Positions 1,881 through 22,799 of a DNA stretch of 24,797 bases are shown piece after piece. Position 1 is the first letter of the stretch; each line of letters opens with the position of its first letter. The position numbers and the translations under genes were made by a program. Below the pieces are notes generated by a model, which was not told the DNA's origin, ran no database searches, and worked only from the letters and a program-made list of their open reading frames with translations. The DNA comes from a virus. Taxonomy: Duplodnaviria; Heunggongvirae; Uroviricota; Caudoviricetes. The stretch spans positions 1-24,797 of IMG/VR virus record IMGVR_UViG_3300017649_000001, one strand, 5' to 3'.

Positions 1881-1920
1881 TTGCGTGATGCTAACTAATT
1901 AGTTATTTAGTTAGCATCAC
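1881..1920 (+). promoter_or_regulatory. Putative phoH promoter overlapping an operator and a 14-bp inverted repeat (may also terminate the tail operon)
   Basis: TTGCGT(1881)-17-TATTTA(1904). TAACTAA-ttag-TTATTTA at 1892-1909. Arms GTGATGCTAACTAA 1885-1898 and TTAGTTAGCATCAC 1907-1920. Confidence 0.6.
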
Positions 1921-3574: not shown

Positions 3575-3592
3575 TAACTAATTCGTTAGTTA
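3575..3592. promoter_or_regulatory. Operator palindrome (perfect copy)
   Basis: TAACTAA-ttcg-TTAGTTA, ending 17 bp upstream of the helicase ATG. Confidence 0.75.
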
Positions 3593-6059: not shown

Positions 6060-6097
6060 TTTACCGCGTGAAACCCTCGTTTCGCTCGCGTATAAAA

Positions 6098-6760
6098 ATG
6101 TCAGATAAAGCAACAGCAATAACAGACGGCAGATCAATGACAGCTAATCGCTACACGGTTAAGGTGACGCGAACACCTTTGACGAATGGCAAACGCACGT
6201 TTGTCTCTTTTGTCGCTGTGGGTTGGAATGGCGCAGCGCTTTTCTTTTCGAGCGCGCCCAATGAAGACGCCTACGGATTAGAAAAGGACGACAAGGAGTA
6301 TCACGCCTGGCTTCCCATCCAGAAGAATGAATCCGGCGTCCAGGCGATCATCGCTGGCAGCAATCTCAATTACAATCGCCGTTCATGGGAATCGAGCCAA
6401 ATGTTCGATGACGATGTGGTGAATTTCTTCAAGGAAATTAAGAAGGTTGGCTACACCGATATCAAGCGCGATTTGGTTCAGCACATCGTCGGCCCAGGGC
6501 TAGACGAGGAGCGGTATTTGGAGCTGCGCGTAAACGCGGCACTGTCTGATGCTGGTAAGCACTTTAGGGCACAAATCAGAGATATCGACTCGCGAAATCC
6601 AGTTTTCGTCAATTTTAAAAGCAGCCTTGATCGTGATCATGCCGCTTATAAGAAGATAGCTGAACGTCGGCGCGCGGAAGCTGAGGAAATTCAAGCCCTG
6701 GAAGCGCTAATCACTAACCAGGTGTTTGCACAGACACACGAAGGTTTTGGAGCGTTCTGA
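6098..6760 (+). CDS. Hypothetical protein, C-terminal FGAF motif (#1)
   Basis: Open frame 6068-6760; ATG at 6098 is preferred over GTG at 6068. Ends ...QTHEGFGAF*. Confidence 0.75.
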   Translation: MSDKATAITDGRSMTANRYTVKVTRTPLTNGKRTFVSFVAVGWNGAALFFSSAPNEDAYGLEKDDKEYHAWLPIQKNESGVQAIIAGSNLNYNRRSWESSQMFDDDVVNFFKEIKKVGYTDIKRDLVQHIVGPGLDEERYLELRVNAALSDAGKHFRAQIRDIDSRNPVFVNFKSSLDRDHAAYKKIAERRRAEAEEIQALEALITNQVFAQTHEGFGAF

Positions 6761-7566
6761 TGAATGAGGTTGATGATTTCGGCCGCAGCGATATCAAGAT
6801 TTTCGCAAATCTTGTCGCCAGCGAACTTACCGACGCGGCGACGCGTAAGAACCCCTTCCTCGATCCTCGCACTGACGGATATCTAAGTAAATCGGTCGCG
6901 GAGTATTTGGGTAGGCTGTACGATAATGGTCTGGCGAGTGCAGATGGCTGGCTGTTTGATACGATGGAGAACTTCGCCGCCATCTACAGATGCGGCTCGA
7001 ACGCAGTTCTGTTTCAAGTTTATATTGCGCCAGATAATGGCGTTTTCGCCTGTATGACGCGATGGATCAGATACGCCGGCCAGTCTTTGAATTTCTTTAA
7101 TTTGGAGAGTCGGGCTGTCTTTCTCAATCCTGAAAATCTCTTAAACCAGGCGATTATATGCGAGGAAAATGTTTCCGCGCCGATGTTCTTTAGTGGCCGC
7201 GTTGGACGGCTCCTGCCTTACATGGATGTGACCTACGAGCGGGATGCATATAAATACTGGCGTCCTCGCAAAAGTGAAAAGGATAAGCGGGCTGGCGGGT
7301 TTGAACCATTCCATCAAATGCTCAGCGGACTTAATCTGGCGGCCGCACTGACCTCTGAGGCTGGTCGAAAGTTCGCCTCATATTACGCCAGCGACAAAGG
7401 TTCAGATACCGGCTCGGGCGATATGTGGGAGGTCGCTCACGCCATTCGCGATTTTCGCTCCAGAGCGGATACGAACGACGATCTTGGCGTCAGTGTCGAA
7501 GGTTATATCAAGCCAAAAATCGATCAGAAGTTCTACGCGGAGCTTCCCGGCTTTGGCGCTTTCTAA
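6760..7566 (+). CDS. Hypothetical protein, C-terminal FGAF motif (#2)
   Basis: 268 aa, TGATG overlap with the previous gene. Ends ...YAELPGFGAF*. Confidence 0.8.
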   Translation: MNEVDDFGRSDIKIFANLVASELTDAATRKNPFLDPRTDGYLSKSVAEYLGRLYDNGLASADGWLFDTMENFAAIYRCGSNAVLFQVYIAPDNGVFACMTRWIRYAGQSLNFFNLESRAVFLNPENLLNQAIICEENVSAPMFFSGRVGRLLPYMDVTYERDAYKYWRPRKSEKDKRAGGFEPFHQMLSGLNLAAALTSEAGRKFASYYASDKGSDTGSGDMWEVAHAIRDFRSRADTNDDLGVSVEGYIKPKIDQKFYAELPGFGAF

Positions 7567-7577
7567 GCGAGGATAGA

Positions 7578-8432
7578 ATGAACAACTGCATCAAAAGCTC
7601 CGTCAATGTTAAGAAGATTCAGTTCTCTCTTTACGGTAGGCCGTTCGGAGCTTTCCATTATGAGCGCTTCGATGACTATTCGTTTCGGGAAGCATTCGTC
7701 CAAGATTTCATAGCGAATCCGGAGGCGGCGCTTGGCTATCGTCACTTTGTCAAAACCATCAAAGACACAAAAGAGAAAACCTCTTTTGGTGCTCTGCAAT
7801 TGATCTATATCCTACCAACGCTACCTGACCCACTCAAAAATCAGTGCGTTCAAACCTTCAATGCGATAATTCCCACCGTTTTCGATGAAGAAATAAACGG
7901 TTGGCGTGTCGGTTATCATTATGAAGAAACTGAGAAGGGCGGCTCGGGATCTGGCATAGCTATTGATAATGTTACATGGGCGAACATGATGGGTCCTGAT
8001 ATCAATCATTATCCCGTTGACGAAGCTTTTCGCCGATATCGTAATCGACTTCGCCGTTATGTGAACAATATTTTTATGGGTTACGCACCTTCGCTTATTG
8101 AGCGAAACTGGTTACCAACCCAATCACGGGCAACATTCTTCTACGGCCACGATGAAAAGAACTACAAAGGTCTTTTCAACAGCAATGCAAGTCTGGCTCT
8201 CGACGGTCTTAATTTATTGCTCGCACTCCAGCATCATGGCGATTTTGGAAAGACAGCGCTCGGAAAAGTGCTCAGCAAGAGCGCTTATAATTTTCGTCCT
8301 ACGGTACATGCTTATCGGAATCGTCGTTCATCGTATGAAATAAAACAAGGCATGATCAACGTACTCGACGATGAAGAAATCCAAAAAGTAGTAGAATACT
8401 ACGCCGACAATCCTCTTTTTGGTGCCTTCTAA
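7578..8432 (+). CDS. Hypothetical protein, C-terminal FGAF motif (#3)
   Basis: ATG at 7578 follows a GAGGA RBS; the 7425 start would overlap the previous gene by 142 nt. Ends ...YADNPLFGAF*. Confidence 0.8.
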   Translation: MNNCIKSSVNVKKIQFSLYGRPFGAFHYERFDDYSFREAFVQDFIANPEAALGYRHFVKTIKDTKEKTSFGALQLIYILPTLPDPLKNQCVQTFNAIIPTVFDEEINGWRVGYHYEETEKGGSGSGIAIDNVTWANMMGPDINHYPVDEAFRRYRNRLRRYVNNIFMGYAPSLIERNWLPTQSRATFFYGHDEKNYKGLFNSNASLALDGLNLLLALQHHGDFGKTALGKVLSKSAYNFRPTVHAYRNRRSSYEIKQGMINVLDDEEIQKVVEYYADNPLFGAF

Positions 8433-8526: not shown

Positions 8527-9096
8527 ATGACCTATTATTTGTCGTTGGATAATGACCCCAAGAATAACAAGTTTCAGTTCGTTTGCCCAATCTTCGAAAC
8601 GAAGGTTCACATGGCGCACTGTGTTCATCTTCGCAACATCGTTTGGTGCGGCGGTCGAAGCGAAATCAGGCGCGGCTGCCAGGCGTGCATGTTGTCGGGT
8701 AAATGTCCGGCCTCTGAAATCGTGCGCAAGATAAGTTTTCATAAGGATACGCCAGACGACTACGGCAGTGCTACTCCCGTCCTTGGCAAGATTCGCCGAG
8801 ACGTTCTTGAGAAAGTCGCTCCAGTCATCGTTCAGGAAAAACACATGCAGGAGCTGCGTGTTTCCGAAGCGGAAAGGGCGCTCATCATGACCGCGTCCGA
8901 ACGAATACGAAAACTCATTCCTTCAGCTCCTGAGCCAAGTAACGCAGCGCCGAACTATTCCCGGCGCGCGCCAACCAGTTCTGACCGCGCTCCTCGTTCG
9001 ACACGTAGGCAGGCAGCGCCGAAACCAACATCAACTGTCAATAACGCGGCGCGCACCGGTGACATGTCGGCCGCCATCAATATGGAGGCATCATAA
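8527..9096 (+). CDS. Cys-rich hypothetical protein (probable Zn-binding N-domain, disordered basic/Pro-rich tail)
   Basis: CP...C...C...CQAC...CP pattern; TAATG overlap with the ligase. Confidence 0.75.
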   Translation: MTYYLSLDNDPKNNKFQFVCPIFETKVHMAHCVHLRNIVWCGGRSEIRRGCQACMLSGKCPASEIVRKISFHKDTPDDYGSATPVLGKIRRDVLEKVAPVIVQEKHMQELRVSEAERALIMTASERIRKLIPSAPEPSNAAPNYSRRAPTSSDRAPRSTRRQAAPKPTSTVNNAARTGDMSAAINMEAS

Positions 9097-10601
9097 TGCG
9101 CGGAGTAGTTTCAGCTTCGGATCGAATGAAGGCAGAAGAATACAAGGTTGCTCGTCTCCTTGAGAATATTCGCGACACGCCTTCTCTGAGAGAAAAGAAG
9201 GAAATGGTGGAGGAGCTGCTCGACCTGGAGCTTGGCGCGTTTGTTCTCAAATGGGCGCTCGATCCCGACTACACGTTCGGGATTTCGCCAGAGCGCATCG
9301 TTGGCGGCGGCCGTCTTTCACTTACGCCAAGTCGAACCATGGGGCTTCTGTCTGATCTGGTTCAGCGCAAGCTCAGCGGAAACGCAGCCATCGCTCAGAT
9401 GCGAGATTATATGCAGATGCTTTCACCTGATGGATCGGAGCTGCTATTTCTCATTCTGTCCAAGAATTTACGCTGCGGTTTCGGCACGCGAATGGTCAAC
9501 GAGATCCGACCCGGCTTCATCAACACCTTTGAGGTCATGCGCGCTCAGAAATACGAGGAAAAGCGCGTTGCTGGCTGGAAAAACATCGTCGGTGAGCCAA
9601 AGCTCGACGGTAATCGAAATACGTTTCTATGTTCAAACGGGCAGGGTGCATTCTACACGCGTTCTGGCGAGATTGTTCGGGCGCTCGATTTTGCGGTTGC
9701 TCCAATAATGAAGGTGGCAAAGCTGATCGCCGAGCAGGATCCCGAGTTCTATATTCGCACGGTTGATGGCGAGAAGGGACTTTATTTCGCGCTTGATGGC
9801 GAGGCGATGATGGGTTTGTTCGGTGACACCGGAAAGCTTCGTCGCAAAAACGAGCAGGCGAAAAACGCGGAGCTGCATCTTTACGATATCATTCGCTATT
9901 CGGACTGGACGGGCGAAAGCGCAAAACCGATGACGCTGAAGGAGCGTCGTGAGAAACTAGCAGCCTTCTGCCGTGTTGCCAGGGTACTTCTGAAAGGCGA
10001 GTTCGAAAATCTCGTTCAAATTGTCCCTCAGACGCCGCTCACCGACGTGGCCGAGATTGAGGATTATTATAATACTTGTGTCACAACTCCGCTTGGTTCG
10101 TATCTGGCACGTGGTGATCTCGATCAGGAAATTGAATTGACCATTGCGCTCACAGACGAGCAAACTGGGCTTCCAAAGAACCTTGAAGGAGCGATGATCA
10201 AGAATCTCGACGCGCCGTATGAGCGCAAGAAGTCTTACAATTGGCTCAAGATGAAGCCGAAAGAGACAGAGGATCTTCAGATCACCGGTGCTTTCCCAGG
10301 CGAGCCGCATAAAAAGTACGAGAACACGCTCGGTGGTGTTCTGGTAGATCGTCAGGGCGTTGAATGTCGCATCGTCGGCTTCTCGGACGAAATGCGCGAT
10401 GAACTGTGGGCGCTCTATCAGCAGGATCTCGAAGCAATCGCCGATCATGGCATCGAGGACCTATCCGACTTCAGCGGCAAGCTGATCGGGCGGCTGATTG
10501 AGGTCAAGTTCCAGGAGGTGACACCAGATGGCTCACTTCGTCACGCAAATTTCGTGCGCTTCCGGGACGACAAAGCTGAAGAGGTTCGCGAAGCAGCCTA
10601 G
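9096..10601 (+). CDS. lig: ATP-dependent DNA ligase
   Basis: Motif I EPKLDGNR, then LDGE, LYD, EGAMIK, WLKMKP, and a C-terminal OB fold (IEVKFQEVTPDGSLRHANFVRFRDDK). Confidence 0.93.
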   Translation: MRGVVSASDRMKAEEYKVARLLENIRDTPSLREKKEMVEELLDLELGAFVLKWALDPDYTFGISPERIVGGGRLSLTPSRTMGLLSDLVQRKLSGNAAIAQMRDYMQMLSPDGSELLFLILSKNLRCGFGTRMVNEIRPGFINTFEVMRAQKYEEKRVAGWKNIVGEPKLDGNRNTFLCSNGQGAFYTRSGEIVRALDFAVAPIMKVAKLIAEQDPEFYIRTVDGEKGLYFALDGEAMMGLFGDTGKLRRKNEQAKNAELHLYDIIRYSDWTGESAKPMTLKERREKLAAFCRVARVLLKGEFENLVQIVPQTPLTDVAEIEDYYNTCVTTPLGSYLARGDLDQEIELTIALTDEQTGLPKNLEGAMIKNLDAPYERKKSYNWLKMKPKETEDLQITGAFPGEPHKKYENTLGGVLVDRQGVECRIVGFSDEMRDELWALYQQDLEAIADHGIEDLSDFSGKLIGRLIEVKFQEVTPDGSLRHANFVRFRDDKAEEVREAA

Positions 10602-10602
10602 T

Positions 10603-11685
10603 TCATGGCGTCTCCTTTAGCTTTCGCAGCAGAAGGCGGCGCATTTCAAACGCCAGGTCAAACTTGCCGGACTTAATCATCCGGCACACTGACCGGAAAT
10701 AGCCGCCAAAATTCGCGATCGGTTGTGATCCTACAGCCGGTCGCGCCTGCATTTGCATCACGTATAGGAATGCGGCCGCCGCGGACGACCCGCCGATACT
10801 GTCACGCGCTTCCTCCCAGGCATCATTACTCACGCCAAACGCGCCGCGCAGCTTCACCACCCCGCTAACCAGGTGCTGTTCAGTCCGCACTTCCTCAAAA
10901 TACTCCATCGCGTCCGGGCACGCCGCCGTCAGATCGCTAATTCGCAGCGCCGCCGCTTGGCTTTCTTCGGAAGCCCCCTTACAAAAATTGGAATCTTTGT
11001 TGTTATCTATATGACGGCAATTATTGCCGCCAGAGGCGGATTTATATCTCTCTTCGGCATCAATACGGAGCTGGCGCCATTCCTCGATAAACGGTTCAGG
11101 AGAGGCGAGTGACCCGCGGCGAGGAAGTCTACCCATCAAAGCGACGAAGCGCTCCATTAGGTCCTCGGCGTCGATCTCAGCCAGAATGCCGCGAACCGTG
11201 CGTCGTTCCATCGTCAGCTCGTCAAATTTGGCCGATCGCTCCCGCTTGGCCGTCTCGATCAGATAAGATAACTTATGGAACTCGGACTGACGTGCCATTA
11301 ATGGCCCGAGATCAAAACCGAAGGCTTTAATTATTTTACCGTCACGGCTTCTCTGAGCGAACCTTTTGCCATTTGCCGAGTCCTTGGCATTAATAAGCCC
11401 AAGATCAATGAGCTGGCGCAGCGCATATCGAATAGATCGCTCAGAAATTCCGGAATTTTCGCATAAATATTCATTGGAAGGCCAAACGAGAATTTTGCCT
11501 TCAATCATTTCATTGCCATAAACAGCGCAAAGCTGTGTCAGCACATGACGCACCGAGCTTGTGAGTTGCAGAGCCTTACCGGCCAGCGTTGCTGCCTGGA
11601 GCAGTTCGCTTCGGGTGACAGGTTGCAACTCCTCGTGCGTAACAGCAGGCGCATAGCTCCGCTGCCCGAACACGCGGGTTCCCAT
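10603..11685 (-). CDS. repC: Plasmid replication initiator RepC (repABC/repC family)
   Basis: N-domain VWPSNEYL...GISERSIRYALRQLIDLGLI..KDSANGKRF...AFGFDLGPL and C-domain ACPD...GVSNDAWEEA...FGGYFRS match RepC. RBS GGAG precedes the ATG. Confidence 0.92.
   Translation of the reverse strand: MGTRVFGQRSYAPAVTHEELQPVTRSELLQAATLAGKALQLTSSVRHVLTQLCAVYGNEMIEGKILVWPSNEYLCENSGISERSIRYALRQLIDLGLINAKDSANGKRFAQRSRDGKIIKAFGFDLGPLMARQSEFHKLSYLIETAKRERSAKFDELTMERRTVRGILAEIDAEDLMERFVALMGRLPRRGSLASPEPFIEEWRQLRIDAEERYKSASGGNNCRHIDNNKDSNFCKGASEESQAAALRISDLTAACPDAMEYFEEVRTEQHLVSGVVKLRGAFGVSNDAWEEARDSIGGSSAAAAFLYVMQMQARPAVGSQPIANFGGYFRSVCRMIKSGKFDLAFEMRRLLLRKLKETP
10960..11060. other. Candidate oriV inside repC
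   Basis: AT-rich patch with a GANTC site in the region encoding the interdomain linker. In characterised repABC replicons the origin lies within repC. Boundaries are approximate. Confidence 0.35.
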
Positions 11686-11735
11686 ATCTCCAAACCTTTA
11701 TTTAGGCCAAGCGATCCCGTTCGCCCAGAAAGGCG

Positions 11736-11764
11736 TTGACAGGTGATTCGGAATTGGAGTAGGA
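11736..11764 (+). promoter_or_regulatory. Antisense (ctRNA) promoter in the repC leader
   Basis: TTGACAGGTGATTCG resembles the conserved TTGACAGTGATTCG ctRNA promoter of repABC plasmids as I recall it. It is oriented opposite to repC and contains a GANTC site at 11745. Confidence 0.65.
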
Positions 11765-11767
11765 AGA

Positions 11768-11878
11768 AGACGCTTTAAGGATTTTGGTTCTTCCTACCCT
11801 TGGTTTTCCAAGTGATCGAAAGAGGTTCCTTCTTCCTACAAATTTCCAACCCGTGGCTCCAACCACGGGTTTTTATTT
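11768..11878 (+). ncRNA. Putative countertranscribed replication-control RNA (ctRNA/inc-alpha-like)
   Basis: Bounded by the TTGACA promoter and a hairpin-U terminator, antisense to the repC leader. The 5' end is inferred. Confidence 0.55.
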
Positions 11879-11879
11879 T
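11848..11879 (+). terminator. Intrinsic terminator of the putative ctRNA
   Basis: AACCCGTGG-ctccaa-CCACGGGTT followed by TTTATTTT. Confidence 0.75.
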
Positions 11880-12079
11880 GCTTGGCGAGTTTCCTTTAAA
11901 TTTCGCAAGGCGGCAGAAATTAATTCGGACCTGCTTTTCAGTCCTTCTTCCGCCATTACGCTATCTACAAAGTCTCTCTCCTCTTTTTTGAGCCAGATAT
12001 TCACCTGAATAAACCCCTGGTTAGCCCGGCGTTCTCTGAATGCCTTCAGCTTATTATTTGCCAAATTGGGTTCACTCAT
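11873..12079 (-). CDS. Ribbon-helix-helix (CopG-like) DNA-binding protein
   Basis: QVNIWLKKEERDFVDSVMAEEGLKSRSELISAALR fits the beta-alpha-alpha RHH pattern. Co-oriented with and upstream of repC. Confidence 0.75.
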   Translation of the reverse strand: MSEPNLANNKLKAFRERRANQGFIQVNIWLKKEERDFVDSVMAEEGLKSRSELISAALRNLKETRQAK

Positions 12080-12374
12080 GGTTACTGCTCCGTTAATGCG
12101 ATTTCTAGCTACTCAGATTCTTTCCGATTCTACAAGCGCCCCAAAATGGCCCTCCTCTGGAATCTTTCATTCCCTCTGAATAAGGGGGTTAAATAATTGT
12201 TGAATAATTATTTTCGTAAAAAGTCGTGGTTTTAAGCGATTCCCTCTTGATTTCTCACTATTTAATTACTTATCAATGTCGCAACGACAAAAGGCGATCA
12301 TCGACGAAGTTACAAACTGAGTTCCGTTAGGATGATGTAATGCGGAATTAAAGATACAGGCAAGGAGATCGATA

Positions 12375-12818
12375 ATGGGCGAACCGACTAAGTTTAATGA
12401 ATTTTTACAAAATGCACTTGAGCGTCCGCATGGCCTGACGAACAAGGAAATCGCCGACAAGGTTGGTATCCCTAATGCCAACATGATCTCCATGTTCAAG
12501 AGAAACCCCGATTACAAGACGCCACTTCAATATATTGCCGGTCTCTCCAAGGTGCTTGGCTTTGACTTCCGCTACGGAATGCGCCTGGCATTGCAGCAAT
12601 ATTATACCGATGATGTTATCAACGCCCTCGAGCGCGCATTCGTCGAAATGACGGACGACGAGCAGGCGGTCCTGAACGAATATCGCGAAGCTAAAAAGTC
12701 CGGAAAAGCTTTTGCTGTTGATGGCGAAACGCTTTCCGAGGAAGAAGCGGAGGTAATCCGCAACATGCGGAAGCTTCGCGAACTGGGAGTTCCGGTGAAC
12801 TTCAGCAAAGGCGCCTGA
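12375..12818 (+). CDS. XRE/Cro-C1-like HTH regulator (candidate master repressor)
   Basis: LTNKEIADKVGIPNANMISMFKR helix-turn-helix, RBS AAGGAG, own downstream terminator, divergent from RHH-repC. Confidence 0.75.
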   Translation: MGEPTKFNEFLQNALERPHGLTNKEIADKVGIPNANMISMFKRNPDYKTPLQYIAGLSKVLGFDFRYGMRLALQQYYTDDVINALERAFVEMTDDEQAVLNEYREAKKSGKAFAVDGETLSEEEAEVIRNMRKLRELGVPVNFSKGA

Positions 12819-12846
12819 TAGCGCTACCCAAAACCGACGTTTGAGT

Positions 12847-12870
12847 AAAACAAGGCTGCGGCCTTGTTTT
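12847..12870. terminator. Intrinsic terminator (potentially bidirectional)
   Basis: AAAACAAGGC-tgcg-GCCTTGTTTT perfect hairpin. Confidence 0.8.
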
Positions 12871-12886
12871 ATATTGCTCCTCAGTC

Positions 12887-12917: not shown

Positions 12918-13112
12918 ATGTCTAATAAAGCAGTTCTTCAGGAAATTCGTATCAATGAAGCCGAAGTGTTCGAGCAGATCGACAAGATTTCGAATCCGAC
13001 GGTGATCGATATGAATGGACTGACTATTTATAGCGGAAATCACGAAGAATATGGCAATTGCCGTTTGATCGTTACAGCGTTCGCCGAAGCGGTTTTGTAT
13101 TTCGCCAAGTGA
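12918..13112 (+). CDS. Small hypothetical protein (64 aa)
   Basis: RBS AGGTG, operator directly upstream, fills the gap before the vWA gene. Confidence 0.65.
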   Translation: MSNKAVLQEIRINEAEVFEQIDKISNPTVIDMNGLTIYSGNHEEYGNCRLIVTAFAEAVLYFAK

Positions 13113-13150
13113 TCCCCAGATCGATTTCGAATAACTTGTGAGCAGTTGAA

Positions 13151-13168
13151 TAACTCACAAGTTATTTC
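13151..13168. promoter_or_regulatory. Operator palindrome (degenerate)
   Basis: TAACTCA-caag-TTATTTC, overlapping a 13-bp inverted repeat at 13130-13166. Confidence 0.5.
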
Positions 13169-13204: not shown

Positions 13205-15280
13205 ATGTCCAATTCTGTAATGCAGATTGCACAGCTCAAGGAAGTCATCCAGAAGCTTGTGCCACTTATCGCCGGCAAGGGACTTGAGGTTACTCAACGC
13301 GGCTCCAAAGCATACGTTAAGACCCATCCTGTCACCGGCAAGCCTGTCTCGGTGAATATTCCGAATATCTCCGATAATGCGTCGCCCGATTTCGTGCGCG
13401 CTATTCAGGGCTTCATCGATCACGAAGTGGCTCACGTTCTCTTCACCGATTTCGATATCTACACCTCGGCAGGCGCAGATCAGTTGAAGCTTTCACCGAA
13501 GCAGCGCCGCTTCACCGAGATCCACAATATCGTTGAAGACACCATGATCGAACGTGAAATGGTGAAAATGTTTGAAGGATCGGCTCGCAATCTCTCCGAT
13601 CTCGGAACGCACTTCATCGAGAAGGTGACCAAGCCGGCGATCGCCAAGGCCGGCTCACCGGAAGAGGAATTTCAGTACCTGTTCGTTCCGATGACGCGAG
13701 CGCTAGCCGGTCAGAAGGTTTTTCAGAATTTCATGGACGACGGCGGCTACTGGAAACACCCTGTGGTCGAAGACGTGATGAGCAAGCTGTCTACCGAGAG
13801 CAAGCAGTTTCTGGCGAAGGCCCGCTCCACAAAAGAGACCCACAAGGTCGCCAAGGAGTTCGAGAAAATCTTCTTCGGCGACGATGAAGATGATGAAGAC
13901 GAAGAGGATGGCGATGACGGTCAGCCGTCGCGCAGCCAGGACAAGCCCGACAAAAAGGCGGGTGCTGGAAACGGAACTGGCAAGCGTGACCATTCAGAGA
14001 GCAAGCCTGGTGAAGAAGGCGACGACGAGGGTGAAGGCACGTCCGGCTCAGGCAGCTCAGGTGGCGAAGGAGATGAATCCGAGGCGGAAAGTGAAGGTGA
14101 CGAAGGTGGTAGCGACGGCTCCGCGGGTTCAGGTGGCAAGCCGAAAGGTAAGATGAGTGACGAGGTCGGTGATGGCAACGGCGAAGATGTTACCACGGAC
14201 GGCGCAACTGGCGGCGGCAACGGCGAGTTCATGTCCGAGGAAGACCCGCAGTCAGGTGGCGGCGGCGTCGGTAATGGTTCCGTGAAAAAGTCCATCTTCG
14301 AGTTCGAAGATGATGCGTTCAAGGAAGCAGACGTCTCCTCAAAACTCTGCATCGAGATTGAGGAAGAAGCCGTCGATATCATGAAGGCGGCCGACTATAA
14401 CGTTTACACGACGGAGTTTGATCGTATCGAGCCACTGCTGGTTCCAGAAAACATCAATCCAAAATGGATTCCTGAGATGGAAGAAGCGACCTCGCTTCTA
14501 TGCGGCAGAATGCAAAAGGATATCGAACGTCTGATGGCGGCTCAGTCCGTTGTAACGCGTGTGCCAGGCTATCGTCGTGGTCGTTTGCATATGGCTTCGC
14601 TTCATCGCGTGGTTCAGGGTGATGATCGCGTCTTCACGCAGAAAGTGGAAAACCGCTCCAAGGATACGGCAGTTTCGCTTCTCATCGACAACTCCGGTTC
14701 AATGCATGGTGAGAAAATGCGTGTAGCGATGCTGGCCGGTTACGCTCTTTCCCGCACGCTTGAACGCGTTAAGATTACCCATGAAGTGATCGGCTTCACA
14801 ACGGGAAGTTGGGGCGATCTTCCACAAGACGTCCTGAAGGCAATGTATGATGAGGCGCGCAATAGCGGGATTTCATATGATCGCGATTGTACGCTGGCGA
14901 TGCCAATCTACAAAGACTTCAACGAGCGGGTTGATTCCACTGTCAAGACACGCATCGCTTACGCCATGAACGCACAGCGCGGCCTGTCAGGCAATATTGA
15001 CGGCGAATCCCTGCGCGTAGCAGCCAATCGTCTTCATACGCGATCTGAAAAGCGAAAGGTGATGTTGGTTCTGTCAGATGGCCAGCCCGCAGGATCGCAC
15101 CGCGCCGCCCCTCACCTGAAGCAAACGGTTCAGGATCTGAAGAAAGAGGGTATCGAGTGTGTTGGGATCGGCATTCTCACTGACGCGGTGAAGAAATTCT
15201 ACCCAAATCACGTGGTGCTTCGCAACGTTAACGAGCTTCCAGGCGAAGTGATGGGTCAGCTCAAGGCAATCCTTCAGTAA
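13205..15280 (+). CDS. CobT-like vWA-domain protein (MoxR partner) with HExxH N-domain and acidic linker
   Basis: IDHEVAHVLFT and NIVED in the N-domain; D/E/G/S-rich linker at about 13870-14330; vWA MIDAS LIDNSGSM and VLSDGQP. Confidence 0.88.
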   Translation: MSNSVMQIAQLKEVIQKLVPLIAGKGLEVTQRGSKAYVKTHPVTGKPVSVNIPNISDNASPDFVRAIQGFIDHEVAHVLFTDFDIYTSAGADQLKLSPKQRRFTEIHNIVEDTMIEREMVKMFEGSARNLSDLGTHFIEKVTKPAIAKAGSPEEEFQYLFVPMTRALAGQKVFQNFMDDGGYWKHPVVEDVMSKLSTESKQFLAKARSTKETHKVAKEFEKIFFGDDEDDEDEEDGDDGQPSRSQDKPDKKAGAGNGTGKRDHSESKPGEEGDDEGEGTSGSGSSGGEGDESEAESEGDEGGSDGSAGSGGKPKGKMSDEVGDGNGEDVTTDGATGGGNGEFMSEEDPQSGGGGVGNGSVKKSIFEFEDDAFKEADVSSKLCIEIEEEAVDIMKAADYNVYTTEFDRIEPLLVPENINPKWIPEMEEATSLLCGRMQKDIERLMAAQSVVTRVPGYRRGRLHMASLHRVVQGDDRVFTQKVENRSKDTAVSLLIDNSGSMHGEKMRVAMLAGYALSRTLERVKITHEVIGFTTGSWGDLPQDVLKAMYDEARNSGISYDRDCTLAMPIYKDFNERVDSTVKTRIAYAMNAQRGLSGNIDGESLRVAANRLHTRSEKRKVMLVLSDGQPAGSHRAAPHLKQTVQDLKKEGIECVGIGILTDAVKKFYPNHVVLRNVNELPGEVMGQLKAILQ

Positions 15281-15302
15281 GCCCAAAAAATGCGCAAAGG
15301 AC

Positions 15303-15369
15303 TAACTAATACGTTAGTTGCCAGTTGAAGCCCTTTGCGCAATCGCGTAAATAAATAATCAGTTAGTGA
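15303..15369. promoter_or_regulatory. Two operator palindromes upstream of the AAA+ gene
   Basis: TAACTAA-tacg-TTAGTTG at 15303-15320 and TAAATAA-tcag-TTAGTGA at 15352-15369, plus an extra half-site TAACTAA at 15374. Confidence 0.75.
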
Positions 15370-15404
15370 GAACTAACTAAATCAGCAGCAGCAACGAGGA
15401 TCAG

Positions 15405-16685
15405 ATGACCGCGCTTCAGAACGAAACAGCCACGCCTACCGCCAACGACAAAATCAAATGCCTTGTCGACGGACAGATGGTTCACTCCATTCAGAACCAT
15501 ATCGAGAAGAACCTTCCTGAATGGACCATCCAGCGCTATCAGGAAGCATATCCGGACACGCCGTTGTTCTCGCCTTATGGTGAAATGATCAAACAGCGTG
15601 CTCTCAAGAATGCCGAGGACCAGCGCAAGCAGCGTGAGGAGAAGGAGCGCCAGGTGGCGGATGCTGCACCAGCGCCCGTTGCCGGAACGTCGAATAACGT
15701 TGTGGTGGGTAACTTCGGTGGCAAGCAGGCCGAGCTGATCTCAAAAGTTGGCGCGATGCACGAACTTTTCGATCTTGGCGCCGTACCAGCAGCCATGGGT
15801 TCGAAGGGGCAGCCAATTGCGGTGCACTATTATGAAGGTCACACGGACCTCAATTCGCTCTATCTGCCGGCGACCGACGCTGCATATGTCTTCAACATCG
15901 ACCTCCTGAAGAAAGTCATTCTGGCGCTTCAGTTGAATTTCCCGATGCTGCTCTGGGGTAAACACGGCACTGGTAAGACGACCATCGTCGCCCAGGCATC
16001 TGCTCGAACGGGCCGTCCTGTTATGCGTGTCCAGCACACGATGAACATGCAGGAGTCTGACGTTATCGGTCAGTGGACTGTGAAGAACAGCGAAACGGTG
16101 TTCGAGCTTGGACCGCTTCCGACCGCCATGCTGAACGGTTGGGTTTACATCGCCGACGAATATGACTTCGCAATGCCTGCCGTGACAGCGCTCTACCAGC
16201 CGGTTCTCGAAGGTGAAGCTTTGATCATCAAGGACGCGCCAGCGCATCTTCGCAAGATCGTTCCGCACGAGAACTTCCGCTTCTTCGCTACCGGCAACAC
16301 GAACGGCACCGGCGACGAAACTGGTCTCTATCAAGGCACGACCATGCAGAACGCCGCCAACTACTCGCGCTTCAAGATCACCGAAGAGGTCGAGTACATG
16401 GACGCGAAGATCGAGGAAGCCATCATTTCTGCCAAGACTGGCGTCGACAAGACGGTTTCGCGCAATCTCGTGAAGTTCGCCAATCAGGTTCGTTCATCGT
16501 TCACTGAAGGCAAAATTTCTTCCACGATCTCTCCACGTGAGCTGATCTCGGCTGCTCAGATCGGCTTCGCGTTCGGTGGAAAGTGGGCTGTCGGTTTGCA
16601 GCTCGCGTTTTCCAATCGCTTGTCGTCGGTCGACAAATCGGCCTGCGAGCAGTTCATGAACCGAGTGTTTAAGGACGGCGAATAA
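15405..16685 (+). CDS. CobS-like MoxR AAA+ ATPase
   Basis: Walker A GKHGTGKT, Walker B IADEYD, FRFFATGNT, and C-terminal ISPRELI. Confidence 0.9.
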   Translation: MTALQNETATPTANDKIKCLVDGQMVHSIQNHIEKNLPEWTIQRYQEAYPDTPLFSPYGEMIKQRALKNAEDQRKQREEKERQVADAAPAPVAGTSNNVVVGNFGGKQAELISKVGAMHELFDLGAVPAAMGSKGQPIAVHYYEGHTDLNSLYLPATDAAYVFNIDLLKKVILALQLNFPMLLWGKHGTGKTTIVAQASARTGRPVMRVQHTMNMQESDVIGQWTVKNSETVFELGPLPTAMLNGWVYIADEYDFAMPAVTALYQPVLEGEALIIKDAPAHLRKIVPHENFRFFATGNTNGTGDETGLYQGTTMQNAANYSRFKITEEVEYMDAKIEEAIISAKTGVDKTVSRNLVKFANQVRSSFTEGKISSTISPRELISAAQIGFAFGGKWAVGLQLAFSNRLSSVDKSACEQFMNRVFKDGE

Positions 16686-16687
16686 TC

Positions 16688-17314
16688 GTGACGAACTATC
16701 GTGACCCGAAGAACAGCGAAGCGCAGATAAAGCGCTTCGCCTGGAAGGTGTTGCGACGTTTTCGTGCCGCAGGCGACCACTCCCACGAGATCGATGATGT
16801 TGTGCAGGAGCTATGGATCGCCTGGCACAAGGCTGTCCAAGCCTTCAACCCCGAAATGGGCGTGCCATTTGGTGCTTATCTGATGCGCGGAATGAAGTTC
16901 CACATCAACAAATACGCCGATGATCACGTCACCAAGCGTCACGATGAAGTTGTGGCGCTGTCGATGGATATGACGTTCGACGAAGATAAAGCCTTCGCGA
17001 ACATCATTCCGGACACCGCAGAGCTTCAGGATGAGGTCGTTATCAAGCGCGGTCTATTTGAGCGCGTGGTGGCTGAACTTTCGCCAGACGCCAAGACGTT
17101 CGTCCGGATCATGACAGATGATTCCGAAGAGCTTCGACACGAAGTGAGGGCGATCGAGGAGCGGAACAACTACGCAAGCTCTCAAAGGGTGCGCAGCCTG
17201 CTTCCACTCGGCCTCTCTGAAACTGCCGTCTTCGAGTTGATGGGCGCAACATACCGTCAGCGTGAACGGATTTTGGCAGAGATTGAGAATGTGAGCCAAA
17301 GGTACAGCAAATGA
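16688..17314 (+). CDS. Sigma70-family (region 2)-like transcription factor
   Basis: EIDDVVQELWIAWHKAVQAFNPEMGVPFGAYLMRGMKFHI fits sigma region 2; LSMD follows. GTG start. Confidence 0.75.
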   Translation: MTNYRDPKNSEAQIKRFAWKVLRRFRAAGDHSHEIDDVVQELWIAWHKAVQAFNPEMGVPFGAYLMRGMKFHINKYADDHVTKRHDEVVALSMDMTFDEDKAFANIIPDTAELQDEVVIKRGLFERVVAELSPDAKTFVRIMTDDSEELRHEVRAIEERNNYASSQRVRSLLPLGLSETAVFELMGATYRQRERILAEIENVSQRYSK

Positions 17315-17835
17315 CCAATACTCCGCAGTTTGCCCCAGGCTGTTTTGGTTCAGCGCTTGCTTTCAAGAGCGCTGACCAGATTTGTCGCCAGTGTGTGTTT
17401 CGCGCTCAGTGCGAGCCTGAACACTACAAAAACCTTCAGGCGCTTCGCGACAAATACGGCATCAAGTCGAAGGATCGTCCGAAGGTCCTGAACGATGATG
17501 ACGAGAAGTACCCGGGGCTGACTGCGAAAGTGGTCGAGGTGATCGAACGTCTCAAGCGTATGGATATCGACGTGAAGGGAATATTCAAAAGCGGTCAGAA
17601 CCCGTTCGTCGGCCGGAATATGTTTCCTTTCGAGTTCATCTGTCATGCAGCGTTGAAGCAACCGGATCGCAAGCTTGAAATGCGCCAAGTCGCGATCTTC
17701 TTTGCGCAAAAGCTGAATTGGGCCCCGAATACGGCAGCCGCTCAGGCTCGCATTGTCTGCAAAGCGCTCGAATATTTCAATGTGGTTCGCTGTGAAGGCG
17801 ACCAGGTTATCTCCACTCTCGCTGATAACGGATGA
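17311..17835 (+). CDS. Hypothetical protein with N-terminal Cys cluster and possible winged helix
   Basis: PGCFGS...CRQC...C at the N-terminus; ATGA overlap with the sigma-like gene. Confidence 0.75.
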   Translation: MTNTPQFAPGCFGSALAFKSADQICRQCVFRAQCEPEHYKNLQALRDKYGIKSKDRPKVLNDDDEKYPGLTAKVVEVIERLKRMDIDVKGIFKSGQNPFVGRNMFPFEFICHAALKQPDRKLEMRQVAIFFAQKLNWAPNTAAAQARIVCKALEYFNVVRCEGDQVISTLADNG

Positions 17836-17838
17836 TTT

Positions 17839-20800
17839 ATGAATACCGCCCTCGCCTGCCGTTCTGATTTCTCCCTTGGTGAGTCCATTTTGACCACCGA
17901 TTATATCGTGCGTGACGCGAAAGCTGCCGGGCAGACTGCCGTGGCGCTTACTGACACAATGAGCGTTACCGCAATGACGAACTTTTTCGGTGCCGCGAAA
18001 AAGGATGGGCTGAAGGCGATCATTGGAACGCGTCTACGTTTAACAGACAATCCAACCTGGCGGCCTGGCAAGGACCAGAAGAAAAAGGATATGCCGCGTA
18101 CTTACTGCGCGATCCTTTATGCGCGTACTGAGGCGGGTCTAAAGGTGATCTATCGCCTTCTGTCACTCGCTAATTCAGAAGCACGGTTCTACTACGAGTC
18201 CAAGCTTGGCTTCGACGATCTGTATAAGGAGCTGGACGCCGCGGGTAATGACGATCTGGCGATCGTGTATGGCGATACACATAGCATTCTGGAACACCCT
18301 GAGTTCGATAAGATCGCTTCGCGGTTAAAGACGACTGGTGTTTCTGAGATTTTTGCGCCGTTCGTTCCGGTAAACACCCCGTATTTCGCTCGATTGTCAG
18401 AGTTGGCTGCTAATGCGTGCCGTGACGGCTATGCGAAGCCGCTTGTTATTCGACCAGCGCTCTATGAGCGCGATGCTGCGGATTATAAAGAAATCATCAC
18501 GGCTGCGATCGGCAATCAGAAGATTACTGATCCTTGGTTTCGCTCTGCCTACAATCGCGACTTTCATATCATGCAAAAGCCGGAACTGACGGCCGAGCTG
18601 GTGAAAACTGGCAAGATGTTGCAGACGCTTGGTAAGGATGAAGCGTTGAAGCAGATGCGCGCAGGCATCGCCAATACTGAAACCTTTCCCGATCTGTTCA
18701 CGTATGAATGGAGCAAATCCGGCGTCACTCTGCCAAAGCTAGTTCCCAACGAGTTCGCAAAAGTAGTCGAGGAATGCAAGCTTGGCTGGACACGTCGGTT
18801 CATGTCACCGGTTTTTGGTCATATGCCGGATATGACTGAACTGAGCACGGTTTACATGCCGCGTTTGAAATACGAGCTGGAAGTTCTCCAAAAGCTCGAC
18901 TTCTCTGGCTACTTTCTGCTCGTCCAGGATATCGTTCGACATGCAAAGGATTCAGGTATTCTTGTAGGTCCAGGTCGAGGCTCCGTCGGCGGCTCCCTTG
19001 TCGCTTATCTTATGGGCATCACTGAATGCGATCCAATCAGGTTCGGCCTTCTGTTCGAACGCTTCATCAATCCGGAGCGTATCGACTTGCCTGACGCCGA
19101 TCTCGACTTCATGTCCGAGCGCCGTCACGAGATTTTCGAATATCTGTATGCCAAATATGGCGAGGAATACACTGCCGGTGTCTCAAACTACGGCACACTC
19201 GGCGGCGCATCTGCAATTCGCGACGTATCGAAGGCAATGGGTATCCCGGAGCGCGAGTATTCGATCTCCAAGATGGTGCCGAAAGAGCACGGTCAGCCAG
19301 TCGCTCTTCAGAAGGCTCGTGAGAGTGTGCCCGAGATTGACGACTACGCTACCAAATACGAGGCAGTGTGGTCAGTTATCGAGCGCGCCGAAGACAACAT
19401 GCGATCTTATGGTCAGCACGCAGCCGGTGTCGTTGTAGCCGGTGAGCCGCTTGTAAATCGTGCGGTTCTGGAGCGTCGCGCAAACGGTCAGGTTGTCTGT
19501 TGGGACAAGCGCATCGTTGAAGATCAGGGATTGGTAAAGGTTGATATTCTTGGCCTGAAAACACTCGATCTAATCGATCTGGCGCTGACCTATATTCGCG
19601 AGCGATACACAAGCGTCCCGGATCTTCATCAAATCCCGCTTGATGATGAGAAAGTGCTCGCCAATTTTGCTGAAGGTAACTCTGTTGCTGTGTTCCAGTT
19701 CGAAAGCCCTGGAATGAGAAAGTTGCTGCGCGAAGTCGGTGCAGGTGGCGATATCACATTTGAAGACGTCTCTGCCTGCACCGCACTTTATCGACCTGGC
19801 CCGATGGAGTCAGGTATGATGGACAGCTTCTACTTGCGCAAACAGGGTAAAGAGCCAGTTTCTTATGATCACGCCCTTATGGAAGACGTTCTGAAGGAAA
19901 CATTCGGCGTTATCACCTATCAGGAACAGGTCATGCGTATCTCTCAGGTGATCGCAGGCTATTCCGGCGCCGAAGCAGACAAACTGCGCAAGATCATGGG
20001 CAAAAAACAGCCTGACGAAATGGCAAAGCAGAAGGATAAGTTCATAGAAGGCTGCGTCAACACAATCGGCGCAACTGAGACGTGGGCTGGCTCGCTGTTT
20101 GAAAAGATCGCAGGTTTCGCGGGCTACGGTTTCAATAAAAGCCATAGTATCGAGTACACGCTGATCTCCTATCAGTCGATGTACCTCAAGACCTATTATC
20201 CTGCAGAGTTCTATGCGGCAGCCTTGTCGATCCTTGATGACGACAAACTTAACGCCATCGTTAGAGACGCCAAGCGAGCGGGTATCGACATTTCTGTGCC
20301 CGATATCAATATCTCCACCAACCGGTTCGAGATTGCGACCAGCGCTCGCCTTGTAACACCTTTCAATCGTATCAAAGGAATTTCGTCACGTACCGGCGAT
20401 GCAATATTGGCGGCGCGCGCAGCAGGTCCGTTTAAAGACAAGGCTGATTTTTTGGCGCGTGTCGAGCGACAGAAGTGCAATGTAAAGCACCAAAAGCTTC
20501 TCGATGACGTTGGTGCGTTCTCGCGCATTGAGTTAAGTCAACCCCCAGCGGACGATCCCACCCGTATTCTGTCGCAGATCGAGCTTCTGCCGGGCCTTGT
20601 TATCAGCACGGTCCCGGTCAATCGCGACCTCGATGCATCGAAGCTATCGCGTGAAATGGTTTCTGACGTGATCAACGCCTGCAGAACGGCTTATGGTCCG
20701 ACGGCACCTGTGCCAGATGGTGTTATCGTATCGCCGAGGTTCGGTAAGGACGCGCGTTTTGTTGTCGTGATGGATGCGCCAAGCAAAGATGAGGAAGATG

Positions 20801-21198
20801 CCGGCGTTATGGGTCCGTCAAATGCCGCAGAAGCGATCAAGGATGCGCTCGCTCTACACGGTATGACGATTGATGAAATGTACTGGACAGCGCTGATCAA
20901 GCGGCCCAAACAGGGCAAACAAGTCATGCCAGACGAGATCGCCAAGTATGCGCCATTTCTTGAGCGCGAGCTTGAGCAGATCGGTTCGCCCGTCATCGTC
21001 ACGCTTGGCACTGCTGCCACGCGGTATTTCCTTCCTGACTTTAAAGGTAAGGCGTCAGACGCTGCCGGTCAGATCCATTACGACAAGACCCGCGACGTGA
21101 ATATCGTCGTCGGTTTTAATCCGAACGAGATCCATTTCGATCCCGACAAACTCGAAAATCTCGTTGAGGTTTTCGCGTCCGTTGTCGATCTGCTCTAG
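17839..21198 (+). CDS. dnaE: DNA polymerase III alpha subunit (family C) with C-terminal UDG-like domain
   Basis: PHP-like N-terminus (RSDFSLGES, LTDT), GPGRGSVGGSL, catalytic PDADLDF, KVDILGLKTL, FQFES, ALYRPGPM, GYGFNKSH, PDINIS. The last ~185 aa follow a family-4 UDG pattern. Confidence 0.95.
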   Translation: MNTALACRSDFSLGESILTTDYIVRDAKAAGQTAVALTDTMSVTAMTNFFGAAKKDGLKAIIGTRLRLTDNPTWRPGKDQKKKDMPRTYCAILYARTEAGLKVIYRLLSLANSEARFYYESKLGFDDLYKELDAAGNDDLAIVYGDTHSILEHPEFDKIASRLKTTGVSEIFAPFVPVNTPYFARLSELAANACRDGYAKPLVIRPALYERDAADYKEIITAAIGNQKITDPWFRSAYNRDFHIMQKPELTAELVKTGKMLQTLGKDEALKQMRAGIANTETFPDLFTYEWSKSGVTLPKLVPNEFAKVVEECKLGWTRRFMSPVFGHMPDMTELSTVYMPRLKYELEVLQKLDFSGYFLLVQDIVRHAKDSGILVGPGRGSVGGSLVAYLMGITECDPIRFGLLFERFINPERIDLPDADLDFMSERRHEIFEYLYAKYGEEYTAGVSNYGTLGGASAIRDVSKAMGIPEREYSISKMVPKEHGQPVALQKARESVPEIDDYATKYEAVWSVIERAEDNMRSYGQHAAGVVVAGEPLVNRAVLERRANGQVVCWDKRIVEDQGLVKVDILGLKTLDLIDLALTYIRERYTSVPDLHQIPLDDEKVLANFAEGNSVAVFQFESPGMRKLLREVGAGGDITFEDVSACTALYRPGPMESGMMDSFYLRKQGKEPVSYDHALMEDVLKETFGVITYQEQVMRISQVIAGYSGAEADKLRKIMGKKQPDEMAKQKDKFIEGCVNTIGATETWAGSLFEKIAGFAGYGFNKSHSIEYTLISYQSMYLKTYYPAEFYAAALSILDDDKLNAIVRDAKRAGIDISVPDINISTNRFEIATSARLVTPFNRIKGISSRTGDAILAARAAGPFKDKADFLARVERQKCNVKHQKLLDDVGAFSRIELSQPPADDPTRILSQIELLPGLVISTVPVNRDLDASKLSREMVSDVINACRTAYGPTAPVPDGVIVSPRFGKDARFVVVMDAPSKDEEDAGVMGPSNAAEAIKDALALHGMTIDEMYWTALIKRPKQGKQVMPDEIAKYAPFLERELEQIGSPVIVTLGTAATRYFLPDFKGKASDAAGQIHYDKTRDVNIVVGFNPNEIHFDPDKLENLVEVFASVVDLL

Positions 21199-22765: not shown

Positions 22766-22799
22766 AGTCACTAGATAACTACCTAGTTAAGTAGTGACT
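22766..22799. promoter_or_regulatory. Degenerate operator / nested palindromes upstream of the SSB gene
   Basis: AGTCACTA...TAGTGACT arms enclose TAACTA-cc-TAGTTA (22776-22789). Confidence 0.5.

Follow-up and report, generated by a model that had tools for sequence, protein, structure and literature searches.

A Stand-Alone repC Replicon Cassette in a 112-kb Siphovirus Genome, a Probable Phage-Plasmid of the RHEph10/pLM21S1 Family

Overview

The replication gene repC was investigated in a 24,797-nucleotide stretch of viral DNA (the window), which forms the first 24.8 kb of the IMG/VR record IMGVR_UViG_3300017649_000001. We consider it likely that the window comes from a complete siphovirus genome of 112 kb that belongs to the RHEph10/pLM21S1 family, that a block of ~2.6 kb within it is a stand-alone repC-family replicon, and that the element is a phage-plasmid. 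This reading is supported by gene content, by synteny, and by the plasmid and virion forms seen among relatives, and from these we infer a plasmid lifestyle for the element itself. It most likely persists as a plasmid prophage, because it carries a plasmid-type RepC cassette. Phage-plasmids are well studied in enterobacteria (P1, N15, SSU5), whereas those of Alphaproteobacteria have mostly received passing mentions. An alphaproteobacterial phage-plasmid with a stand-alone RepC had been proposed for this DNA in a sequence-only reading; the gene set, the synteny, and the circular assembly largely bear the proposal out, and its plasmid lifestyle is still presumptive.

RepC and the Phage Genome That Carries It

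RepC matched the RP-C domain (PF03428; residues 17–168, E 7e-40, 137 bits against a cut-off of 24.4), the RP-C_C domain (PF11800; residues 251–345, E 2e-13, 51 bits against a cut-off of 32.6), and phrog_22671, "replication protein" (E 2e-64). Both domains lie in one protein, as in the RepC initiator family, whose members measure ~360–440 aa. The stop codon of repC adjoins the ligase gene. No repA- or repB-like gene was found adjacent to repC, whose neighbors are the ligase gene and a gene for a 68-aa ribbon-helix-helix (RHH) protein. This differs from the repABC operon, in which repA and repB stand directly upstream of repC (repA-repB-repC in pRtrCIAT899b, for example), and repC here is outside any repA/repB operon. 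The coordinates of these and other features are collected in Table 1.

The record is 112,228 bp long with a GC content of 52%, and IMG/VR lists it as 100% complete, with direct terminal repeats. Its ends overlap by 123 bp, and removal of the overlap gives a molecule of 112,105 bp, in which a 1058-aa tail fiber open reading frame (ORF) closes cleanly over the junction (109658–112105 joined to window 1–729). Because this ORF closes, the ends of the record mark where the assembly broke open a molecule that is circular or circularly permuted. The element encodes a siphovirus set of proteins (terminase large subunit, portal, scaffold, major head protein, tape measure, J-like and minor tail proteins), and each of the main structural and packaging genes that were tested is a long, undamaged ORF that strongly matches its family. 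The record also encodes a DnaB-like helicase, primase, PhoH, and a gp32-like protein; cobT, cobS, a sigma-70-like factor, and dnaE span 13205–21198. One ParA-like gene was present, 64 kb from repC. Morphogenesis and packaging genes, RepC, and ParA thus share one replicon, which is the gene set of a phage-plasmid in the sense of Pfeifer et al. 2021. Neither a tyrosine integrase (PF00589) nor a serine recombinase or resolvase (PF00239) was detected across the whole 112,228-bp record, in searches for which control genomes were positive. The lack of these enzymes, the circular assembly, and the circular plasmids formed by relatives in isolates would suit a putative extrachromosomal state.

These results agree in every point with what had been seen in the letters: an intact repC with leader elements between the ligase and a repressor (the divergent helix-turn-helix (HTH) gene described below, a presumed repressor), no repA or repB alongside, tail fiber DNA nearby, and no integrase in the window. 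Of the checks suggested at the time, a circular contig with capsid, terminase, and par genes was also found.

Table 1. Positions of the replicon features, their borders, and other features discussed. Positions beyond 24,797 are those of the whole record.
Feature	Position	Strand	Details
repC, 360-aa replication initiator	10603–11685	−	PF03428, PF11800, phrog_22671
AT-rich dip in repC, probable oriV	10966–11055		repC nt ~630–720; GC 35–40%
repC leader, two hairpins	11683–11740	−	Alignment and folds of 15 loci; second hairpin pairs with Shine-Dalgarno
Predicted antisense RNA promoter	11737–11766	+	−35 perfect TTGACA at 11737–11742; weak −10 near 11760–11766, 17–18 nt on
Three copies of GTAGGAAGAA	11759–11769, 11788–11798, 11829–11839		Form long stem of leader or antisense RNA
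Predicted counter-transcribed RNA, ~110 nt	11772–11882	+	Folds into 5' stem-loop and terminator; ends inferred
Intrinsic terminator hairpin, then TTTTTATTTTG	11848–11871	+ (antisense)	9-bp GC-rich hairpin; with T-run to 11882
Ribbon-helix-helix protein gene, 68 aa	11873–12079	−	First gene of repC transcription unit
AT-rich divergent promoter region between RHH-repC unit and HTH gene	12080–12374		Four GANTC; tandem 11-mers 12188–12209; ATTCCCTCT twice
XRE-like HTH regulator, 147 aa	12375–12818	+	Divergent from RHH-repC; conserved in 11 loci
Perfect 11-bp inverted repeat after HTH gene, probable terminator	12846–12871		
Conserved 64-aa ORF, right end of lineage-specific block	12918–13112	+	Similar-sized ORF in same spot in relatives; 41% identical to Shinella copy
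Palindrome AATAACTTGTGAG/CTCACAAGTTATT upstream of cobT	13130–13166		One copy of genome-wide TAACT-N-AGTTA element
ATP-dependent DNA ligase, left cassette border	9096–10601	+	PF01068, PF14743; phrog_114 E 6e-86; same place in all relatives
CobT-like von Willebrand factor A (VWA) protein, right backbone border	13205–15280	+	PF11775 E 6e-36; phrog_1576 E 2e-183
Tail fiber C-terminus	1–729		Window start
ParA-type ATPase, 217 aa	75885–76538	−	Pfam; sole ParA-like gene, 64 kb from repC
Small ORF downstream of ParA	75593–75892		ParG match faint, E 0.09

Relatives and RepC Phylogeny

RepC was 47–48% identical to the proteins of the Rhizobium phages RHEph10, B1VFA, V1VFA-S, RHph_X66, RHph_Y2_11, RHph_Y2_17_1, RHph_N1_10, RHph_N1_15, and RHph_N2_6. 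Identities of 38–48% were found to copies on non-mobilizable plasmids of 115–119 kb from R. beringeri, Shinella zoogloeoides, Sinorhizobium sp. LM21 (pLM21S1, 47–48%), Pararhizobium qamdonense, and two Methylobacterium strains; the 119-kb R. beringeri plasmid carries homologs of both RepC and dnaE. The gene order dnaB-primase-ligase-<repC-<RHH-HTH>-orf-cobT-cobS-sigma was identical in RHEph10, B1VFA, and the Shinella plasmid, and its core recurred in pLM21S1, the Pararhizobium and Methylobacterium plasmids, an Ochrobactrum isolate contig, and two metagenome relatives. Altogether, the position of repC and its flanking genes recur in >12 independent genomes, finished plasmids and phages among them. 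Between 62 and 64 of the 160 crude ORFs were collinear with the Shinella plasmid and RHEph10 at a mean identity of 46%. The collinear order and the 64 of 160 ORFs in common with RHEph10 place the element in the RHEph10/pLM21S1 group.

A search of 5.8 billion proteins returned 267 RepC relatives at E up to 1e-20. Among the best 120, ~28 were on contigs of 100–121 kb, from sources that include Rhizobium, Ensifer, Mesorhizobium, Ochrobactrum, Pararhizobium, and Faunimonas. The two closest RepCs (97% and 72% identity) were on metagenome contigs with the same gene order. Searches for the element's own host were less productive: the only gene with a megablast match among phages and plasmids was dnaE, at 72%, and a scan of genome contigs gave only a copy in a Methylocystis metagenome-assembled genome, 38% identical. 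The Rhizobiaceae-like host suggested by the sequence-only reading was not supported, with a GC content of 52% vs. ~60% in the Shinella plasmid and RHEph10 and a nearest named RepC relative, from the Ochrobactrum isolate, that is 46% identical.

A maximum-likelihood tree of 130 RepCs, rooted on a RepC of the repABC type, supplied the phylogeny that had been recommended as a check. A very long branch parted the whole set from the repABC protein. The element and its two close relatives were sister (SH-aLRT 99) to two RepCs on contigs of 107–108 kb, of which the one from the Ochrobactrum isolate is syntenic; the branch groups with this Ochrobactrum element and not with the Rhizobium and Sinorhizobium proteins. 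Copies on 100–121-kb contigs occurred in every subclade, and copies on larger plasmids in just three tip clades. One of these three, with RepCs from 258–318-kb plasmids of R. leguminosarum and R. beringeri, nested deep among the phage-plasmid copies, which is why phage-plasmids may have seeded stand-alone repC into megaplasmids. The contig labels "PPsize" and "short" clustered on the tree no more than shuffled labels did. Most of its rows come from short contigs whose context is unknown, so the support that the tree lends to these statements is loose, and only the nesting of the big-plasmid copies was taken as informative.

Two replicon pairs stood apart from phage genes. An RHH-repC pair is carried by the 318-kb conjugative plasmid pRlX1 of R. 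beringeri (L019, 5613–7101), beside acdS and genes for ribosomally synthesized and post-translationally modified peptides (RiPPs), and a small ORF-repC pair by a 730-kb plasmid of Microvirga sp. VF16 (L026, 4614–6155). The nesting of the Rhizobium copies in the tree hints at a transfer of the repC pair from phage-plasmid to plasmid.

Control Region of repC

A structured leader of 187 nt separates the RHH ORF from repC, and this region folded better than 200/200 shuffled sequences on each strand (z-scores of −4.2 and −4.0). On the strand opposite to repC, a TTGAC[A/G/T]-N16-18-(−10-like hexamer) arrangement was present in the same place in 12/12 homologous loci. The hairpin and T-run at 11848–11882, in plus-strand orientation ~100 nt past this promoter, formed the best terminator-like site of the region; a hairpin and T-run directly 3' of the RHH stop codon was likewise found in 12/12 loci, with differing stem sequences. 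The equivalent RNAs predicted in the other 11 loci are 76–116 nt long and have the same two-part shape, again with differing sequences. A promoter, a terminator, and stem-loop shapes are thus conserved in 12/12 loci, and from them an antisense RNA of the kind known from stand-alone repC replicons is predicted.

Within the repC leader, the first hairpin lies directly downstream of a conserved GTCAAC (the −35 element read on the opposite strand) and its stem sequence differs in each locus. In the second, a conserved GCCC/GCCT motif pairs with the purine-rich ribosome-binding site of repC in most loci. The MAFFT alignment of the leaders had slipped by one column in some rows; the stems were consequently taken from individual folds, with no formal count of pairs.

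No tandem iteron array was found in or beside repC. The three copies of GTAGGAAGAA were considered as protein-binding sites or iterons, but an RNA stem fits better. The long GTAGGAAGAAG/CTTCTTCCTAC stem is preserved in the metagenome contig with the 97% identical RepC (L020) through matching single-base insertions in both arms, and since these paired insertions keep the pairing, the triplet is better read as an RNA stem than as protein sites.

The 68-aa protein is encoded in the same position in 11/12 loci. Its alignment showed a conserved basic N-terminus, a G-x-x-Q-x-x-V-W-L strand, and an NRSE helix cap, and RHH_1 was matched below the cut-off in 7/12 members (best E 1.6e-4). Profile matches in the PDB were mostly to RHH proteins, chiefly ParD, NikR, and MazE9, and two homologs are called RHH by the Prokaryotic Genome Annotation Pipeline (PGAP). 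An AlphaFold2 (AF2) monomer model, with a mean predicted local distance difference test score (pLDDT) of 82, consisted of an extended segment followed by two helices. Its structural neighbors were almost all RHH proteins, including CopG, at E values above 0.1, and it superposed on CopG with a template modeling (TM) score of 0.72–0.74 and 31% identity over 42 columns. The RHH protein may be a repressor of the RHH-repC promoter.

The divergent region upstream of the RHH gene contained one minus-strand promoter-like site, at 12235–12207. GANTC, the CcrM site, is depleted genome-wide (190 observed vs. 436 expected), and no CcrM-like methyltransferase (PF01555) is encoded in the record. Four GANTC sites cluster at 12116–12238; several other 400-bp windows tie with this one, so the local enrichment is only suggestive. 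Another GANTC lies in the spacer of the antisense promoter (11745), and 10/12 loci have one in the promoter region. This pattern echoes the repABC literature (PMC11514494, PMC3155836), and is statistically not strong here.

The origin of replication (oriV) is probably inside repC, by analogy with p42d, in which oriV is in the AT-rich center of repC and repC alone is a minimal replicon (PMC3155836). The AT-rich dip at 10966–11055 falls between the two RepC domains and contains one GANTC (10991), and the GC minimum of repC was at nt 641–711 in 10/12 homologs.

Taken together, and by analogy with repC and repABC plasmids, these features suggest how the replicon could work. RepC would be made from the RHH-repC transcript and would start theta replication at the AT-rich stretch in its own gene, while the RHH protein would repress the operon promoter and so limit the supply of RepC. 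The ~110-nt counter-transcribed RNA would pair with the leader, favoring hairpins that either mask the ribosome-binding site of repC or bring transcription to an end. Bulk replication would be performed by the phage DnaB, primase, DnaE, and ligase, and the copies would be segregated by the ParA-type ATPase and the small protein encoded downstream of it. The target of the RHH protein, the production of the antisense RNA, the place where replication starts, and the life of this element as a plasmid are all putative parts of this scheme.

Divergence from the Closest Relative

The element was compared with L020 over 8.4 kb, with an overall identity of 95.6%. The body of the antisense RNA (11766–11845) was the most divergent non-coding stretch, at 62–65% identity. 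Lesser islands of divergence were observed at the RepC C-terminus (10606–10965), the C-terminal half of the HTH protein (12505–12660), and the middle of cobT (13405–14240). Since these stretches, with the middle of cobT, stand out as the most divergent in two elements that are otherwise 96% identical, a joint diversification of the antisense body and the C-termini of RepC and the HTH protein as incompatibility or superinfection-immunity determinants is conceivable. Incompatibility determinants in p42d are the counter-transcribed RNA (ctRNA) and the last 39 residues of RepC (PMC3155836, PMC10194956). It is plausible that the antisense body, HTH, and RepC C-terminus islands are incompatibility or immunity determinants. 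The pattern fits selection for new incompatibility or immunity types in the single pair compared.

Comparison with Known Systems

The closest likeness is to the RHEph10/pLM21S1 group, in size (~112–122 kb), siphovirus genes, cassette order through dnaE, a ParA-type ATPase with a small downstream protein, and the absence of an integrase (PMC4447125, PMC12509600). The element differs in having ~40% of its ORFs in common with the group at ~46% identity, a RepC at 47–48% identity, and a GC content of 52% vs. ~60%. In the account of Dziewit et al. 2015, pLM21S1 is a plasmid-like prophage that has RepC-like replication and a partition module but no integrase, and it and RHEph10 are named as archetypes of a novel group (PMC4447125). 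In their 2021 census, Pfeifer et al. first set RHEph10 close to the Acinetobacter AB community but then left it out because of its distance (PMC7969092), and Gunathilake et al. 2025 reported parA, parB, and repC in B1VFA and V1VFA-S as possible prophage-plasmids (PMC12509600). A literature search did not find a dissection of this replicon. The lineage is therefore not as poorly described as the sequence-only reading supposed, its kind having been known since 2014–2015 through RHEph10 and pLM21S1, although the replicon itself is unanalyzed in the literature found. What is new is the comparative anatomy of the RHH-antisense RNA-repC cassette and its insertion point; the element is a divergent member of a known group.

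The replicon resembles the stand-alone "repC family" of the pRmeGR4a type in having repC without repA or repB and, as predicted here, a gene just upstream of it that is transcribed the other way, into an antisense RNA, from a promoter of its own and up to an intrinsic terminator. These replicons were described by Mercado-Blanco and Olivares 1994 and Izquierdo et al. 2005, as cited in PMC10194956. Here the replicon is inside a phage genome and an RHH gene precedes repC, in a comparison with pRmeGR4a by description only. Replicons of the repABC type, such as R. etli p42d and the Agrobacterium pTi and Ch2 replicons with RepE/ctRNA, have in common with it the initiator family, an AT-rich repC stretch, a ctRNA that is predicted in this case, a leader stem-loop, and GANTC sites in the promoters and the putative origin (PMC3155836, PMC11514494). 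They differ in that RepC is 31–32% identical and separated by a long branch, RepA and RepB are absent here, the small ParA is unlinked, and the predicted RNA is ~76–116 nt vs. 55–59 nt reported for repABC. Antisense RNA controls both repC-family and repABC replicons with the same hairpin-plus-terminator layout (PMC10194956, citing Izquierdo 2005; PMC11514494). By analogy, the layout of RHH gene, predicted antisense RNA, leader hairpins, and AT-rich probable origin in the element parallels these known replicons. The copy control of pMV158 is of similar design: its repressor CopG is a small RHH protein whose gene shares an operon with rep and directly precedes it, and an antisense RNA (RNA II) is directed against the leader. 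The initiator (rolling-circle RepB) is unrelated, and the host range and plasmid size differ; this is an analogy of circuit design and not of family.

With SSU5/pHCM2/pMT1, the Acinetobacter "AB" group, and nickie, the element has a collinear backbone of ~33 genes in common (helicase, primase, cobS, dnaE, terminase, portal, capsid). In SSU5 and the A. baumannii plasmid, 33/160 ORFs were collinear at 36–38% identity. The major capsid protein was 48–50% identical to that of ~110-kb A. baumannii plasmids and 38–39% to those of SSU5/pHCM2/pMT1 types, and CobT matched SSU5, its Klebsiella and Escherichia relatives, and Pseudomonas phage nickie at 32–37%. A six-frame search found no RepC in the whole SSU5, A. 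baumannii, and nickie records, and the ORF comparison found no homologs of this ParA or its small partner in SSU5 and the Acinetobacter phage-plasmid. With 33/160 ORFs and no RepC in those records, the element is outside the SSU5/AB group. SSU5 and nickie keep the order helicase-primase-ligase-cobT-cobS-dnaE with only small ORFs or tRNA between ligase and cobT, and the replicons of SSU5, AB, and nickie are located elsewhere in their genomes. The block from 10603 to ~13150 is thus lineage-specific and fills a junction that has no replication gene in the gammaproteobacterial relatives examined, which supports the idea of an exchange of the replicon module. The statements that SSU5/Acinetobacter-type phage-plasmids use other Rep proteins, and that the element has a related backbone with an exchanged replicon, had been made in the sequence-only reading and are consistent with these results.

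Alternative Explanations

Several observations weigh against the phage-plasmid reading or parts of it. The DNA came from a soil metagenome. The isolates RHEph10, B1VFA, V1VFA-S, and the RHph phages form plaques, mitomycin C failed to induce pLM21S1 (PMC4447125), and no single family member is known both as a plaque-forming phage and as a plasmid. For the replicon itself, the conserved dip is only the second-lowest GC point in this repC, which has a broader AT-rich zone at nt 150–400, the −10 element of the antisense promoter is weak in this member, and the leader folds gave modest z-scores (−0.5 to −3.2). Rfam at gathering thresholds had no match in the window. When the thresholds were relaxed, suhB/mmgR was matched over the terminator region, still short of its cut-off (27 bits vs. 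41), and because this was the only match, the RNA would be outside curated families such as ctRNA_p42d. One IMG/VR contig of 105 kb (L013) had no RHH ORF upstream of repC and kept the antisense promoter, terminator, leader hairpins, and HTH gene; since it lacks the RHH gene, that gene is not indispensable.

The plaque formers would suit a strictly lytic phage that is never a plasmid and in which RepC is an origin-binding initiator only, like lambda O. The HTH region of RepC does match "replication initiation O-like" phage families (E 1e-4 to 1e-7), and the element is known from a metagenome only. Yet cultured Shinella, Pararhizobium, Methylobacterium, and Sinorhizobium carry collinear relatives in the form of circular plasmids, with the 119-kb R. 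beringeri plasmid in addition. A ParA-type partition ATPase is encoded, the predicted control by an antisense RNA and an RHH protein is in the style of low-copy plasmids, and the divergent HTH regulator is conserved, all of which make a purely lytic element improbable. The failed induction of pLM21S1, with the many relatives known only as plasmids, could instead point to a defective, domesticated plasmid-prophage that replicates through RepC and forms no infectious particles. We find this still less probable, as the structural and packaging genes tested are intact with strong family matches, the tail fiber gene is intact over the junction, close family members form plaques, and IMG/VR rates the genome 100% complete. 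An assembly chimera, or an integrated prophage beside a plasmid repC, is very improbable indeed: the element is known from a single metagenome contig whose 123-bp end repeat could be an assembler artifact, but the same repC position and flanks recur in the independent genomes described above, no integrase or resolvase is encoded, and a long ORF closes over the junction. The phage-plasmid with a stand-alone repC replicon accordingly remains the reading that we prefer.

Other Features of the Element

The HTH protein had only weak HTH_3 and phrog_8 matches, and its homologs are named "helix-turn-helix transcriptional regulator" by PGAP. The gene is a candidate lysogeny or cassette regulator, with a putative role as a repressor. 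Palindromes of the form TAACT-N2-10-AGTTA were observed at four gene junctions in the window (1892–1905, 3575–3592, 13151–13164, and 22776–22789; 0.08 expected), and the copy before cobT is within a 13-bp perfect inverted repeat at 13130–13166. The promoter region of repC and the HTH gene contained no copy of the TAACT-N-AGTTA palindrome. The HTH protein was considered as a binder of this genome-wide palindrome and rejected: a copy precedes cobT, and none is in the repC/HTH promoter region.

Immediately upstream of the terminase gene, two tandem proteins with ParB_N domains and an ABC-like ATPase are encoded (78460–79885 and 80247–82010 of the whole record). Unlike the ParA cassette, these are kept in SSU5 and the Acinetobacter plasmid, at 37–56% identity; because of this conservation they are read as packaging-side backbone and not as plasmid partition genes.

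The C-terminus of the 1058-aa tail fiber matched distal-subunit families of long tail fibers, and the protein had no homolog in the four relatives compared; it is probably the determinant of host range. ORFs at 6068–6760, 6714–6983 (minus strand), 7141–7317 (minus strand), 7425–8432, and 729–1874 were without homologs in all four genomes compared (Shinella plasmid, RHEph10, SSU5, Acinetobacter plasmid). In the 6068–8432 block, the two largest ORFs matched neither Pfam nor PHROGs (6068–6760 against PHROGs only), and ORF 729–1874 matched only the uncharacterized phrog_10745. These ORFs look like cargo specific to the lineage, placed between primase and ligase.

Implications

The analysis overturns nothing known. 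Its meaning lies in an SSU5-like virion and replisome backbone that, throughout Hyphomicrobiales, works together with a RepC replicon adapted to the hosts and with a small ParA of its own. The repC replicon is a compact, portable cassette that is also present in symbiosis-type megaplasmids, and its control layout mirrors that of repABC and repC systems. We tentatively entertain a broader idea, which is possible but rather doubtful: that the Hyphomicrobiales phage-plasmids of 100–121 kb (at least 35 near-complete), as an order-wide family, may have possessed the RHH-antisense RNA-repC cassette from the start and inherited it vertically, seeding megaplasmids and carrying immunity determinants that diversify together. 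The cassette offers a concrete, clonable unit with which to test the low-copy maintenance of phage genomes in rhizobia, and it allows testing whether phage-plasmids swap replicons and incompatibility groups with the large plasmids on which rhizobial lifestyles depend.

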